From the NCBI GenBank assembly GCA_964554125.1, contig CAZKNG010000005.1, positions 1-59,392 on the forward strand: a stretch of 59,392 nucleotides of DNA. The letters run 5' to 3'. This document shows positions 15,916 to 21,875 of this stretch, piece after piece. A model generated the notes under the pieces. The model made no database searches. It had not been told where the DNA came from and worked only from the letters and a program-made list of their open reading frames with translations. Origin of the DNA: an uncultured bacterium. Lineage in GTDB: Bacteria; Krumholzibacteriota; Krumholzibacteriia; Krumholzibacteriales; WJIX01. Numbering within the stretch: the stretch's first letter is position 1; every line of letters starts with the position of its first letter. Made by a program: the position numbers and the translations under genes.

Positions 15916-16353
15916 CTATCTCCACCTGCTGTATCTATATCCGTAAAGCGATCTATACTGACGAAACTGCAGCCGCAGCTTAAAATTACTGCCCGGAGGA
16001 TCGTATGTAAGGTCAATATTCGGGATAAAAACTTCAGGGGAAGTCCTCTGCGAATGTTGGGCAAAAACAGAACGTACACCGACATCAAGATTCAAATCCC
16101 ATGATTGACCAAACCCGTAGTTGAAATGACCCATATAGTAACCCATACTTTGAGATTGATTCCCGTTTGAAGCGAATGAAACACCCATCGAACTCTTGAA
16201 ATCAAGACCCGGTATACAGACAGACCCCTCTGTTACGGCATTATTAAGATAATCGGAAAAAACACTTGGCTGTGTATCTCTATTCTGTGCATTAGTCTGC
16301 GCTGAGAATAAACTAATCAGAAATGGAAGAATTAACAGTGACCGAATCTTCAC
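15916..16353 (-). CDS. Hypothetical exported protein (beta-rich)
   Basis: 145-aa ORF with a signal peptide (MKIRSLLILPFLISLFSAQTNA), 7 nt downstream of the response regulator stop. Confidence 0.7.
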   Translation of the reverse strand: MKIRSLLILPFLISLFSAQTNAQNRDTQPSVFSDYLNNAVTEGSVCIPGLDFKSSMGVSFASNGNQSQSMGYYMGHFNYGFGQSWDLNLDVGVRSVFAQHSQRTSPEVFIPNIDLTYDPPGSNFKLRLQFRQYRSLYGYRYSRWR

Positions 16354-16360
16354 AGCAGAC

Positions 16361-16720
16361 TCATTTCTGTTTCCGGAGTAATTCTTTTACCTTCTCTTTC
16401 AGGGGCTCGAAATCAACAGATTTAACTATATATGCGTCGGCAGCCCAGGTTTTGAAATTCTCTTTATATACAGAATACGCGGAATTTATTATTACCGGAA
16501 TATCTTTGCGCCTTTCTACGATTTGTACAAGCGCGTCGATTCCACTCTCATTCTCAAGCTTTATATCGAGAATAATAAGATCGGGTGGATCTTTTTCCAC
16601 TGAATCAATAGCACCCTTTACATCGCCAACGCAATCTACCTCATACCCTTCATTCTCAAATTCCTCTTTGTAGAGTTTCCTTACATTAATTTCATCATCT
16701 ACAACAAGTATTCTAGACAT
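16361..16720 (-). CDS. Single-domain CheY-like response regulator
   Basis: ILVVDDE, PDLIILD (phospho-acceptor Asp present), PVIINSAY, AYIVKS; GGGTGAGG SD. Confidence 0.95.
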   Translation of the reverse strand: MSRILVVDDEINVRKLYKEEFENEGYEVDCVGDVKGAIDSVEKDPPDLIILDIKLENESGIDALVQIVERRKDIPVIINSAYSVYKENFKTWAADAYIVKSVDFEPLKEKVKELLRKQK

Positions 16721-16824: not shown

Positions 16825-17943
16825 CTACTCAATTGATAAGTCAACAATTATCTGCATCTTTGAAAGGTTTTCTATATCAACTTTTGATAGTTTAACCGGT
16901 ATTCTTACTGTATTTTCAGTTTCATGTAACTCAGGGGTTTCTTCGCCGTCCTTCTCCTCACCTGTTGACTCCTGTCCCAGCTGAGCAAGTCTTTCGAGTG
17001 GATCATTTATAAACTCCGTGGCTACAGAATTCCCCGCTTCCTCACTTCTCTCCTCAGGTTTATTATTGCTGTCATCAGGGAAATCTACAACACGACCATA
17101 ATTTCCATATTCACCTGCTGAAGGTTCAAACTCAACGCTTTCTTCATTCTCGCTGAGGACATTATCCACAAACTCAGAGACAGACTCATGCTCCTCTTTT
17201 TTCTCCTCTGCGCTATTATTTAAAGACTCGCTTTCGTCCGCCTCTGAGCTGATATCATCCAACTTCGTATTGGGCACAACCTCGGCTTCAACATCTGTCT
17301 TTTCTTCTTTATTTTCAGTATCATGAGTTTCACTAGAGCTGCTGGATCTATTACCCGGTATATCTTTCTCTATACTTCTCATGACCAGCCCTACTATCGA
17401 TTCGAATGTCTCATATACCCCTGTTCCTTTCGTGGCAATTGCTCCGAAAGAGTTTTTATGAGATTTGTTTAATTTTTCATCCATTATCTCTTTGTTTAAA
17501 GCTCCGCCGATATCCTGTTTGTTATATTGAAGAACCCAGGGTATCTCATCAAGATTTTTGCCCGTTTGACGAAGATTTTCTTCCAGATTGGCCAAACTTT
17601 CCATATTGTCGTCCATCTTGCCCGGAGAGGAATCCGCGACGAATACTATCGCGTCTACACCTTTTAGAACAAGTTTGCGGGTTGCATTGTAGAATACCTG
17701 GCCCGGCACTGTGTATATAAGGCACTTGACCGATATATTGTTAAGATGTTCAATTTTCATCGGCAGGAAGTCGAAAAACAGGGTACGGTCGGTTCTGGTC
17801 TTCATGGAAACCATTTTACCCTTGTTTTCTCCGGGCAATTTCGAGTATATGTGTTCCAGGTTTGTTGTTTTTCCGCTTAATCCGGGACCATAATAAACGA
17901 TCTTAACGGTTACTTCTTCATCTTTCCTGTTATAAACAGCCAT
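16825..17943 (-). CDS. MglA-family small Ras-like GTPase with a long acidic C-terminal extension
   Basis: KIVYYGPGLSGKTTNL, TDRTLFFDF, YTVPGQVFY, LVLKGVDAIVFVADS and QYNKQD match the myxobacterial MglA signature; followed by about 175 aa of E/D/S-rich tail. Confidence 0.93.
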   Translation of the reverse strand: MAVYNRKDEEVTVKIVYYGPGLSGKTTNLEHIYSKLPGENKGKMVSMKTRTDRTLFFDFLPMKIEHLNNISVKCLIYTVPGQVFYNATRKLVLKGVDAIVFVADSSPGKMDDNMESLANLEENLRQTGKNLDEIPWVLQYNKQDIGGALNKEIMDEKLNKSHKNSFGAIATKGTGVYETFESIVGLVMRSIEKDIPGNRSSSSSETHDTENKEEKTDVEAEVVPNTKLDDISSEADESESLNNSAEEKKEEHESVSEFVDNVLSENEESVEFEPSAGEYGNYGRVVDFPDDSNNKPEERSEEAGNSVATEFINDPLERLAQLGQESTGEEKDGEETPELHETENTVRIPVKLSKVDIENLSKMQIIVDLSIE

Positions 17944-18272: not shown

Positions 18273-18310
18273 ATATATGCAACGCTAACCTCCGTCAGCG
18301 TTGCATATAT
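18273..18310 (-). terminator. Intrinsic terminator after the PPC-domain lipoprotein gene
   Basis: Perfect 14-bp inverted repeat ATATATGCAACGCT/AGCGTTGCATATAT; on the minus strand it extends by GAC-GGAG-GTT and is followed by TTATTT. Confidence 0.75.
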
Positions 18311-18335: not shown

Positions 18336-19118
18336 TTATGGAGAATACGTTCTCCACAACAGGTCATACTCATTACCAGAGTCATCTCCATATACCCTGA
18401 TATAGTAAGTTCCGCTCGATGTAACAGGACAACTTATGAACTCATCGTCTGAGGTCACTGTTGAGGAATCAGAATAACAGATGACATTATCCGGAGAATC
18501 ATAAAGTTCTATATCTATATCTCCTTTATAATGGGTAAATTCACAAGTAACTTCAACCAGAGTATCCCCTGAAGCTACATATATCTCGTACCAGTCATCA
18601 TCGAACTGTAATCCATAACCATCTATCAATTCCAGCCTTCTACCTTCATCCTCAGTAAAATCATATGCCGCACTGTAGCTGTCATTCTCTTCATATTCGT
18701 CGTCAATCCAGGGTACAGAATCAAGCATAGCGCTGTCACAATCGAGTTGTACCGTAGGAGCACGATCAGCTTCTGCCTCGATCTCCTTTTCCCATTGTAT
18801 AAGGACTTTGCAAATAGGATTTTCTTCATCATCAAAAACTATAACACCGCCGTTGCTTTTAGCTGAAAGATGGTGCGTTCCCGGAGACAGGTTCAATAAA
18901 GCGGGTTCATCTGAGGAGATCATTCCAAGGGGAACTGGGTCATGATCAATGTGAATATATAATCCGATTGGATAACAATTTACTCCTTTAAGAACAACAT
19001 AGCCGCCGGCATTTTCATCTCCCAGCTCGGTTGCATAAGGATTTATTTTCATCACTGAGTCTTCCTCGCATCCCAAAAGAAAAACTAACCCTACAAATAA
19101 TAATACAATTCGCCTCAT
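18336..19118 (-). CDS. Lipoprotein with a C-terminal bacterial pre-peptidase (PPC) domain; start reassigned to ATG 19118
   Basis: MRRIVLLFVGLVFLLG-C lipobox with GGAGG SD; DEYEENDS, DDDWYEI, GDIDIELYD and GTYYIRVYG PPC motifs. Confidence 0.8.
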   Translation of the reverse strand: MRRIVLLFVGLVFLLGCEEDSVMKINPYATELGDENAGGYVVLKGVNCYPIGLYIHIDHDPVPLGMISSDEPALLNLSPGTHHLSAKSNGGVIVFDDEENPICKVLIQWEKEIEAEADRAPTVQLDCDSAMLDSVPWIDDEYEENDSYSAAYDFTEDEGRRLELIDGYGLQFDDDWYEIYVASGDTLVEVTCEFTHYKGDIDIELYDSPDNVICYSDSSTVTSDDEFISCPVTSSGTYYIRVYGDDSGNEYDLLWRTYSP

Positions 19119-19241
19119 TACAACCTCCATATGAACCAAGTATCTGAATCTCCAGTATATGGTCAATATTATATCACATCTATAAATTAATGAATCGGGA
19201 TGGAACATACAAACAAAAAATTTACATTATAGAGGGGGTTT

Positions 19242-19881: not shown

Positions 19882-20322
19882 ATGGAAATTACGGAAAAGA
19901 TATTAAGAGAGGTTTTCCACCGCCTCCTTAATATTGAACCGAATGAAAAGAAATTAAAGAAACTCAGAGTTATCATAGATGGAATGATTGACAAATTTCA
20001 GGAAACTTTTGATTTGGATTCAGTCCAGAAACAGAATACATTCAGAGCAATTATATGCAGCATGTTCGTTCATGGATGGGGAATGGGAATGCACCCTTAT
20101 AACAGTCCGGACAAAAACCTTGACGACAACAGTATCGAAGTCAGAGTGAGCAAGGATATACTAACGCCTCTCGAAAATATCAAAGCATTAAGATACGTTA
20201 AGAAAGACCGTGAGGGCAGAGTCAGAAAAGCTCTTTTTGAACCTGATCAGAATAAAAGAATACGCACACAGATTGATAGTCTGCTTGAGAAAATAACAAA
20301 GGAGAAATGGGGAGAAAAATAA
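19882..20322 (+). CDS. Hypothetical protein (no recognised family)
   Basis: 146-aa ORF filling an otherwise empty interval, with strong SD GGGAGGT 5 nt before the ATG. Confidence 0.75.
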   Translation: MEITEKILREVFHRLLNIEPNEKKLKKLRVIIDGMIDKFQETFDLDSVQKQNTFRAIICSMFVHGWGMGMHPYNSPDKNLDDNSIEVRVSKDILTPLENIKALRYVKKDREGRVRKALFEPDQNKRIRTQIDSLLEKITKEKWGEK

Positions 20323-20470: not shown

Positions 20471-21295
20471 TCATTTGGAGTTTTTGTTGCTCATCTCCAT
20501 CTCAATCACCCGTCCGCCATTCTTGAAATCCACACGATCCATGATCTCCCTTATAATATATAAACCCCTTCCGGAATCATTGTAGATCTTCCCTTCACCT
20601 GTTGGATCCTCGATTTTGTCCTGGTCAAATCCTACACCCTGATCTTCTATCTGAATGATCACGCGGCTGATGCTGATATAAATCCGTATATGCACCTTAA
20701 GTTCCTTCTTGTTACTATTACCGTGAACAATGGCGTTGCTTAAGGCTTCATCCATCACCATTGGAAGGTTTACCCTGCAATCTTCCGGGGCGTATCCAGC
20801 TTCGGCGGTCAAAAAAGAGACAAGGCGGTTTACACCGACAATCCTCGACAGTTTGCTCGGTATGAGAAAATCCAGACGAATCTGGCCTTCCCTTATCAAC
20901 TCTCTGCTGCGGGGAAAATACAGGTGGTCGCGGCCGGATAGATCGACAAGATATTGATAATCACTCTCGCTGAAAGGAGGAGTAATAATATTCTTAATGC
21001 CAGCGGACATATATGTAAGATAAGTCCTTTCATCACACTCATCAGTGACAATATGCACGGGTGTGTCGATCAGTAAAAGGCAGATCTGACGAAGCTTTGC
21101 GGGATTGAACCTTTTCTGTGGTAAAAACAGAATAACCCTGGGCGATTCTCTCTTTACCTTTTGCAAGGCTTTTAGAAATCGAGGGAAAGTAGTATAGGAA
21201 TTCTTTTCAACATTATCCGGTAATTCCATTTTTTTGAAAAATTCCAAATGGAGTTCCGGATTCAGATTTAGAGTAATAATCAGAACTTTATCCAC
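20471..21295 (-). CDS. RsbW/SpoIIAB-type anti-sigma factor kinase (HATPase_c) with an N-terminal degenerate receiver-like domain; start reassigned to GTG 21295
   Basis: EALSNAIVHG (N box), DQGVGF (G1), GRGLYII (G2); GTG lies 4 nt after the upstream stop. Confidence 0.85.
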   Translation of the reverse strand: MDKVLIITLNLNPELHLEFFKKMELPDNVEKNSYTTFPRFLKALQKVKRESPRVILFLPQKRFNPAKLRQICLLLIDTPVHIVTDECDERTYLTYMSAGIKNIITPPFSESDYQYLVDLSGRDHLYFPRSRELIREGQIRLDFLIPSKLSRIVGVNRLVSFLTAEAGYAPEDCRVNLPMVMDEALSNAIVHGNSNKKELKVHIRIYISISRVIIQIEDQGVGFDQDKIEDPTGEGKIYNDSGRGLYIIREIMDRVDFKNGGRVIEMEMSNKNSK

Positions 21296-21299
21296 ATCG

Positions 21300-21875
21300 T
21301 TAGAAAATCTTCTGCCCGTCGGCGAGAATTTCGTTGAGGGCATCTTTAAAATAATCACTTGACTGTGCTATTCCGGGTCCAATTTTCTCCTTGTAACCCT
21401 CCCAGCCTTTTTTAATCTCAGGCCCAAGAGCTGACATAAGGTTTCCTTCAGAAAGTGCTTTGTCTCTCTTTTCCTGATTATAGACAAGTATATCACTTAC
21501 AAAAACTCTGGCAAGTCTTTTCGCCCTTTCTTTCTTATTCCTTTCTTCATTTGTATCTTGTTGACAGGTATGCTCTTCAGAAGGCGCGCTCTCTTCGAGA
21601 TCAACCTCTTCGAAACCAGACCCACGCTCTATTTCTCCACCCGCTGAAACCTCTTTATCCTCTATTTCATCATTCCAGACCTCGGCGTTAACCGTTTGAG
21701 AGGACTCTGTGTTAAAACCGCCCGTACTCCTGTCAAAATCCGGTTTGTTTGAATAGGCAGCTTTCAGCTTCCACACAAATTTACATTTTGGACAGCGCAC
21801 CCGAATTCCCTTTACAGGTACATTTTCGTCAGGAAGGCTGTATTTTGTCTCACATCCATTGCATGCAACAATCAT
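21300..21875 (-). CDS. MJ0042-type zinc-ribbon protein with an acidic linker and a C-terminal RomX-like helical domain
   Basis: N-terminal MIVACNGCETKY...RVRCPKCKFVW; C-terminal AKRLARVFVSDILVYNQEK...NL...L..EI..G...YK...YF..ALNEIL. Confidence 0.8.
   Translation of the reverse strand: MIVACNGCETKYSLPDENVPVKGIRVRCPKCKFVWKLKAAYSNKPDFDRSTGGFNTESSQTVNAEVWNDEIEDKEVSAGGEIERGSGFEEVDLEESAPSEEHTCQQDTNEERNKKERAKRLARVFVSDILVYNQEKRDKALSEGNLMSALGPEIKKGWEGYKEKIGPGIAQSSDYFKDALNEILADGQKIF

Follow-up and report, generated by a model that had tools for sequence, protein, structure and literature searches.

A 59,392-nucleotide stretch of DNA from an uncultured Krumholzibacteriota bacterium (GenBank assembly GCA_964554125.1, contig CAZKNG010000005.1, positions 1 to 59,392; hereafter the window) encodes an MglA-type GTPase with a long acidic C-terminal tail (16825..17943, minus strand). 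Sequence comparisons show that the tail carries six conserved motifs and that the proteins bearing it form a distinct, so far unclassified MglA subfamily, here named hairpin-tailed MglA. MglA is the model Ras-like polarity switch of bacteria, and its control is known almost entirely from Myxococcus and Thermus, with regulators acting in trans. Our preferred reading, held tentatively, is that the tail serves as a docking and regulatory platform tethered in cis to a working MglA switch. Coordinates below refer to the window, and features lie on the minus strand unless the plus strand is named.

The GTPase domain

The open reading frame (ORF) list of the window gives a frame of 372 aa with an ATG start at 16825..17943. 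A near-identical database protein (P0001, from a Krumholzibacteriaceae metagenome-assembled genome (MAG), 8-kb contig) differs from it by one tail residue (D for E at position 338, window 16930-16932). Residues 1-193 (17365..17943) constitute an MglA-type Ras-like G domain, within which residues 3-193 gave gap-free alignments with the MglAs of M. xanthus (5ymx, E 6.2e-60) and Thermus (3t12, E 3.1e-56). Pfam searches of the whole protein returned only a weak Arf match, the usual Pfam result for MglA proteins. In an AlphaFold2 (AF2) model built on 108 homologues the G domain was predicted with confidence, and its best Foldseek matches were 14 MglA chains (template modelling (TM) score 0.86-0.93), headed by MglA-GTPgammaS (6h17, TM 0.93).

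The P-loop (G19-PGLSGKT-T27, matching GxxxxGK[ST]) and the G4 motif (N141-K142-Q-D144, matching [NT]KxD) were invariant in the 108 homologues, and the same was true of the Arg53 finger (TDRTLFFDF) and of two residues of switch II (TVPGQ), Thr78, which replaces the switch II Asp, and Gln82 (each 108/108). The beta2 segment TLFFDFLP, which contacts MglB in solved complexes, is unchanged in the tailed MglAs. Judged by these residues, the protein is a genuine MglA whose catalytic set is complete and which carries a long acidic tail; a first-pass annotation made from the letters alone had recognised an MglA signature with the Arg finger and the catalytic Gln, and both the alignments and the invariance bear it out. 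The likeness to group 1 MglA of M. xanthus and T. thermophilus (5ymx, 6izw, 6h17, 3t12) runs through the G domain from end to end (~49% identity) and includes the Arg finger, a Thr substituting for the Asp of switch II, the catalytic Gln, NKxD and the fold. Unlike these proteins, the window protein has a conserved 180-aa tail (372 aa in total), has no adjacent mglB, falls in a separate clade (100/98 support) and shows clade-specific changes in alpha5 and near switch I.

Architecture and conservation of the tail

The tail (residues 194-372, 16828..17364) comprises 179 aa with 36 E and 15 D (51 D/E), 22 S and 15 K/R, and has a net charge of -36. In the AF2 model it is mostly disordered, with pLDDT scores (predicted local distance difference test) below 50 apart from a helix at residues 255-263 (pLDDT ~56) and the final ~30 residues. 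Profile searches of the tail against Pfam and the PDB (E<=10) gave no match, including none to PF03259 (Roadblock/LC7) or to MglB structures.

Alignments of the 108 homologues (44-85% identity) resolved six conserved motifs joined by variable linkers. Motif 1 (residues 219-224, 17272..17289; mean conservation 0.79) has the consensus D-V-E-V-V-A, with the core EVV and an invariant E221, and is followed by motif 2 (residues 233-240, 17224..17247; 0.75), SExxESES, in which S233 and E234 are nearly invariant. Motif 3 (residues 245-265, 17149..17211; 0.85) reads AEExxEEHESVSEFVDxVLxE and is predicted to contain an acidic amphipathic helix; S254, V255 and S256 are invariant. Motif 4 (residues 277-288, 17080..17115; 0.83) is EGYEEYGHxVEL with an invariant G283, and motif 5 (residues 310-317, 16993..17016) is EFINDPLE. 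The tail closes with motif 6 (residues 343-372, 16828..16917), a putative strand-turn-strand, VxVPVxLSxxxI....KVILDIxV, which has the highest beta-type hydrophobic moment within the tail. Mean conservation was 0.57-0.85 in the motifs, 0.31-0.54 in the linkers and 0.82 in the G domain, so that motifs 3 and 4 match the G domain itself. As judged from the alignment columns, this pattern shows strong purifying selection on the tail motifs.

The first-pass annotation had described the tail as a long, acidic, D/E/S-rich low-complexity region with a hydrophobic terminal motif. Its length and acidity are confirmed and it does end in TVRIPVKLSKVDIENLSKMQIIVDLSIE, but six conserved motifs are at odds with simple low complexity. 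That annotation had also named lack of conservation of the tail motif among homologues as grounds for abandoning its proposal; motifs 3 and 4 (0.85 and 0.83, against 0.31-0.54 in the linkers) gave the opposite outcome. In the AF2 model the terminal motif, which that annotation suggested modelling, had raised pLDDT (61-75 over the C-terminal ~30 residues), and DSSP assigned no strands to it.

Distribution and phylogeny

A homologue search limited to proteins of 205-651 aa retrieved more than 120 homologues of 361-450 aa at 100% query coverage (44-85% identity), and those with names traced to MAGs labelled Krumholzibacteriota or Latescibacteria. Searching with a profile of the tail alone placed it in 39 species-level genomes, whose informative names were Krumholzibacteriota or older and looser labels (Latescibacterota, UBP1); one genome labelled Patescibacteria is probably mis-binned. 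Wherever the SVSEF motif was located, the tail shared one ORF with an MglA G domain. When proteins of 98-313 aa were searched with the tail alone, a single 154-aa fragment was recovered, and the tail profile gave 23 matches among 1.84 billion representative proteins, of which the ones examined proved to be fragments of genes or MglA-tail proteins of greater length. On these grounds and on that of the empty PDB search, the idea that the tail exists as a separate protein or as a domain elsewhere was rejected. Across the databases searched, the tail is thus shown solely as a fusion to MglA.

Two irregularities were seen among the relatives. In one MAG, assembly CAVVEY01, the entire tailed-mglA block occurs twice, on separate contigs (L014 and L017), which could reflect either duplication or two co-binned strains. 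At L033:5314-7518 the tailed mglA frame extends to 734 aa and overlaps the region of the response-regulator gene that follows mglA, probably because a stop codon was lost or the assembly is wrong there.

Four of the 23 tail-profile matches were MglAs of 480-591 aa with longer, Pro/Ala-rich tails. This class shares motifs 4-6 in order (DVGRLVELD, PEFITDPM and LxVPVVISRSQVxKTIPLKLxLEIxVVDD) and also has a motif 3-like helix, DVTETLDSVLREV. Motif 4 has counterparts in the sister classes (DVGRLVELD, DYGREIEL), and further MglA classes of 319-337 aa, with tails that are otherwise different, have the same strand-turn-strand ending. Motif 6 is the tail element most widely common to the long-tailed MglA classes.

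A maximum-likelihood tree of G domains (a small sample of 44 sequences, rooted at the midpoint) separated, with 100/98 support, the hairpin-tailed clade from a group containing M. xanthus MglA, an MglB-coupled short MglA (P0230) and the Zixibacteria-type long MglAs. Within the clade, the Krumholzibacteriota tailed class was monophyletic with 99/99 support, and its sister was the 480-591-aa class (99/92); in this tree the tailed MglAs did not branch with canonical group 1 MglAs. Changes diagnostic of the tailed clade were found in helix alpha5 (F177Y, D178E and L180F, and E181 where Myxococcus has K181) and just before the Arg finger, beside switch I (S/A48K and E50R, which add two basic residues, K48 and R50). 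Taken with the tail, tree and substitutions show the tailed proteins to be a distinct subfamily in the sequence record.

The reference classification of prokaryotic small GTPases excluded sequences above 240 aa (Wuichet & Sogaard-Andersen 2014; MglA subclade of 488 sequences, 449 analysed), and because of this cut-off tailed MglAs never entered that survey. At 372 aa the window protein lies outside its single-domain range of 150-240 aa. Neither tailed MglAs nor MglA in Krumholzibacteriota turned out to be described in the literature searched by full text, and the literature on Krumholzibacteriota motility yielded nothing useful.

Two other kinds of extended MglA bear comparison. The Zixibacteria-type proteins (e.g. 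P0179) are MglAs with a ~140-aa tail and a G domain 55-58% identical to that of the window protein. They differ in their tail, which is rich in P, A and S, contains a YRPYPGS motif and finishes in a polybasic amphipathic stretch (KKRGFFKRLFGLK), in a gene flanked by two Robl_LC7 genes and pilB/pilT/pilC, and in grouping with canonical MglAs in the tree. SofG, an orphan MglA paralogue of M. xanthus compared here by description only, is also an MglA-family protein uncoupled from mglB and longer than the core G domain; 239 aa is the length cited for it in PMC4316618.

Motif 3 and the C-terminal helices of MglB and RomR

In M. xanthus, MglB has an acidic C-terminal helix (residues 147-157) that binds a pocket on MglA formed by alpha5 (K181, K185) and the beta2-beta3 loop (L64, I67) and promotes nucleotide exchange, and the Glu-rich C-terminus of RomR can substitute for this helix (PMC6785124). 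The zinc ribbon of GltJ binds short disordered motifs and recruits MglB, and an AlphaFold model places it on the second MglB C-terminal helix (PMC11135422). Motif 3 resembles these helices. The M. xanthus MglB C-terminus was checked (...EISDDDIDNLFSE), and the helix endings compare as VDNVLSE in motif 3, IDNLFSE in M. xanthus MglB and LDDIFQD in a Zixibacteria MglB. The pattern phi-D-x-phi-phi-x-[DE] was present within motif 3 in 90 of the 108 tails and in 3% of composition-matched shuffles, with the pattern having been chosen after the data were seen. A predicted acidic amphipathic helix and this ending are what motif 3 has in common with the MglB helix and the RomR C-terminus. It differs from them in being internal to the GTPase's own tail, whereas theirs are terminal on a Roadblock or a REC protein, and the alpha5 lysines that hold the MglB helix are not conserved. 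The hydrophobic pocket residues are kept in the tailed MglAs (V/I64, I/L67).

Presence of MglB

As the first-pass annotation had noted, no Roadblock/LC7 gene flanks the tailed mglA. Pfam scans (E<=10) detected none in the small neighbouring ORFs, and six-frame phmmer searches with three MglB queries detected no Robl_LC7 in the whole 59-kb window, a result that covers the window and not the genome. These searches spanned 575 kb and used M. xanthus MglB (checked against 6h5b/6izw) and two Zixibacteria MglBs. Precomputed Pfam annotation likewise gave no Robl_LC7 within 7-10 kb in seven hairpin-class loci, and an mglB within four genes of mglA, the arrangement of a coupled module, was absent from the window and from every hairpin-class locus examined. 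As a positive control, the locus of a Zixibacteria-type long-tailed mglA (L047) contained two flanking Robl_LC7 genes and scored E 3e-39 in the same phmmer search. That mglA (L047:5621-7523; YRPYPGS motif, C-terminal polybasic end as above) has a PatA_N protein upstream and pilB-pilT-pilC-pilS downstream.

Two candidates for an unrecognised MglB near the tailed mglA were rejected. The first, orf146, was set aside with limited force: Pfam and the PDB gave no signal, and its AF2 model, of low confidence (pLDDT 55), was mostly helical, unlike a Roadblock fold. The second, a ~125-aa gene upstream of mglA in relatives, encodes a lipoprotein homologous to the N-terminal part of a PPC-domain protein in the window.

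A canonical arrangement was found elsewhere. An untyped metagenome contig (L048:51-3696) carries dnaX-ybaB-recR-Robl_LC7-mglA, and its 194-aa MglA, among the best-scoring short relatives of the G domain, branches with M. xanthus MglA in the G-domain tree. Genomes with a tailed MglA probably carry a canonical mglBA elsewhere too; if so, the tailed protein would be a second, specialised paralogue.

The gene neighbourhood

A stand-alone receiver (REC) response regulator of 119 aa (16361..16720; PF00072, E 6e-22) lies 104 bp downstream of mglA and is probably co-transcribed with it, as no terminator-like site was found in the gap. Seven nucleotides further on follows the third gene of a conserved trio, which encodes a 145-aa signal-peptide protein (15916..16353) without a family match in Pfam scans (E<=10). 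On the other side, a terminator hairpin (18273..18310; 17-pair stem followed by a T tract) separates the mglA unit from an upstream lipoprotein gene. REC directly followed the tailed mglA in 42/42 Krumholzibacteriota-type loci, and all 42 kept the order PH-like/zinc-ribbon gene, lipoprotein (many loci), tailed mglA, REC, 145-aa secreted protein, TPR and Wzi-like. The best solved relative of REC was Thermotoga TrrA (3a0r, E 3e-28), with FrzS at only E 8e-9. About half of the REC residues are common with TrrA, including the unusual AYSxYxxxxxxWAADxY[IV]VKS, and no kinase gene is adjacent.

Upstream of the unit lie RecG, HD, a 191-aa zinc-ribbon protein, an RsbW-like kinase and orf146. The 191-aa protein (21300..21875), encoded 3.4 kb upstream of mglA, is a fusion of a GltJ/AgmX-type zinc ribbon with a RomX domain (ZnR-RomX). 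Neither it nor REC had been connected with mglA in the first-pass annotation. Its residues 114-185 showed significant similarity to the three-helix bundle of RomX (8zna, E 1.1e-9 over 72 residues), and its zinc ribbon matched the AgmX ZnR (7zok, E 6.8e-4) and NF033761 of the GltJ N-terminus (E 4.5e-7). An acidic linker joins the two parts, and the gene stands beside that of the RsbW-like kinase across the phylum and sister lineages. RomX, with RomR, is the guanine nucleotide exchange factor for MglA in M. xanthus. It bridges the REC domain of RomR and MglA-GTP, and RomR itself consists of REC, a disordered region and a conserved C-terminal tail, the latter two being needed for polar localisation (bioRxiv 10.1101/2024.02.20.581209). 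The likeness of the tailed MglA to RomR-RomX is one of architecture only: a folded signalling domain, a long disordered linker and a conserved C-terminal element, with a RomX domain and a stand-alone REC nearby. It departs from that system in that the disordered output is on MglA instead of REC, that RomX is fused to a zinc ribbon and that REC is nearest to TrrA.

Sister-class loci share the block RecG, ZnR-RomX, RsbW-like, orf146, MFS/GT4/LpxL, TPR, Wzi, UbiA and BacA and do not have REC and the 145-aa gene; the association of the MglA tail with ZnR-RomX therefore predates the insertion of REC. The RsbW-like protein (20471..21358, 295 aa) consists of an RsbW/SpoIIAB-type Ser kinase domain (HATPase_c_2) and an N-terminal half without assignment. 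With such a kinase nearby, one might speculate that the invariant tail residues S254 and S256 are phosphorylation sites. The upstream lipoprotein (18336..19208) has 290 aa here, with a C-terminal PPC domain, and only ~115-127 aa in most relatives, so the PPC domain is a local addition. Among the most conserved proteins of the block is orf146 (19882..20322, plus strand), with 78% mean column identity and an invariant HGWGMGMHP; Pfam, NCBIfam and the PDB gave no match for it.

What the tail may do

The reading that we favour, as the best of several and still short of conviction, makes the tail a cis-tethered docking and regulatory platform. The acidic region would be a disordered linker whose six short motifs keep regulators or effectors attached to the GTPase, and it may also fold back on the G domain. 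Motif 3 may mimic the acidic C-terminal helix of MglB and RomR. In Myxococcus such a helix binds the alpha5/beta2-beta3 pocket, and modelling places the GltJ zinc ribbon on it; motif 3 would therefore be the likely point of attachment for the adjacent ZnR-RomX protein, for the remodelled alpha5 pocket or for both. Motifs 4-6 could represent an older module, ending in the hairpin, for a second partner or for localisation, and GTP hydrolysis probably still relies on an MglB encoded elsewhere. For the first-pass proposal that the tail is a regulatory or targeting module built into the protein, the conservation of motifs 3 and 4 and the exclusive fusion to MglA give support, to the extent that conservation can.

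Several observations weigh against this platform. The predicted motif 3 helix reaches only pLDDT ~56, and the helix pattern was defined post hoc. The MglB-binding lysines of Myxococcus alpha5 are not retained: 99/108 homologues have Glu at position 181, and at position 185 a K/R occurs in only 76/108, the window protein having Gly. On this basis, docking of motif 3 in cis into the alpha5 pocket exactly as in Myxococcus is not supported. REC shows no specific affinity to RomR or FrzS, its closest relative being TrrA, and is not supported as a RomR orthologue. Finally, the synteny of ZnR-RomX may reflect phylum-wide housekeeping collinearity and not functional coupling: the whole region from RecG through ValS is collinear across the loci, and for this reason synteny alone is no proof of coupling.

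It is considerably less probable, in our judgement, that the tail replaces MglB in cis to give a self-contained switch, with motif 3 in the alpha5 pocket, the hairpin on the beta2/beta0 surface and built-in control of GTPase activation or nucleotide exchange. Such a role would fit the lack of a Roadblock gene in the 59 kb analysed here and in the 7-10 kb of the seven hairpin-class loci, when the control locus has two, as well as the resemblance of motif 3 to the MglB helix, the clade-specific remodelling of alpha5 and the raised pLDDT at the C-terminus. That same C-terminus received no strands from DSSP, the tail has no Roadblock fold by Pfam or PDB comparison, E181 stands in place of K181, and the MglB-contacting beta2 segment shows full conservation, which continued use of MglB would predict. 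The canonical mglBA arrangement on the untyped contig further weakens the idea, implied in the first-pass annotation, that the tail compensates for a missing MglB.

We also think it unlikely that the tail is in the main a localisation or assembly device, in which the hairpin and motifs 4-5 would anchor the GTPase to the pole, the envelope or a cytoskeletal scaffold, or would oligomerise it, with the acidic region serving mainly as a spacer. The hairpin is the element most widely common to otherwise different tails, the related Zixibacteria-type class ends in a polybasic amphipathic helix, and envelope genes abound in the neighbourhood (Wzi-like, TPR, UbiA, BacA, LpxL-like, GT4). Parallels can be drawn with the membrane anchor of the Zixibacteria type, the SofG extensions and the polar-targeting output region of RomR, whose disordered region and C-terminal tail are required for its polar localisation. 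However, the hairpin is no membrane helix of the amphipathic kind, the high conservation of motifs 1-4 argues that the acidic region is no passive spacer, and the linkage to envelope genes may be merely inherited synteny.

A broader proposal, to which we give similarly little weight, is that hairpin-tailed MglAs are self-addressed and self-regulated polarity GTPases. Motif 3 would then work the alpha5 pocket or recruit ZnR-RomX, and the hairpin would dock either on the nucleotide-sensitive edge of beta2/beta0 or at a polar landmark. Exposure of the tail would depend on the nucleotide state, in an Arf-like interswitch mechanism acting at the C-terminus.

A condensate-forming tail, another suggestion of the first-pass annotation and here taken to drive phase separation at a pole, is very improbable. 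The region is long, charged and disordered, as such a role would have it, but its net charge of -36 and few aromatic or cationic stickers disfavour self-association, conservation lies in discrete motifs and not in overall composition, and specific support was not found. The low-complexity appearance of the sequence is all that speaks for a non-functional extension or a gene-call artefact, which is refuted because over 100 homologues and 39 species genomes keep the same reading frame and motifs.

Hairpin-tailed MglA, a subfamily found throughout the phylum, links short regulator-like motifs to the GTPase itself, with a ZnR-RomX gene nearby, and as such represents a polarity module rearranged by nature. 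The subfamily could serve to test the allosteric pocket, RomX and zinc-ribbon adaptors outside the myxobacteria, and it offers a route to asking how MglAs without an adjacent MglB are controlled. If the self-regulated reading were true, the tail would carry in cis what Myxococcus supplies in trans.

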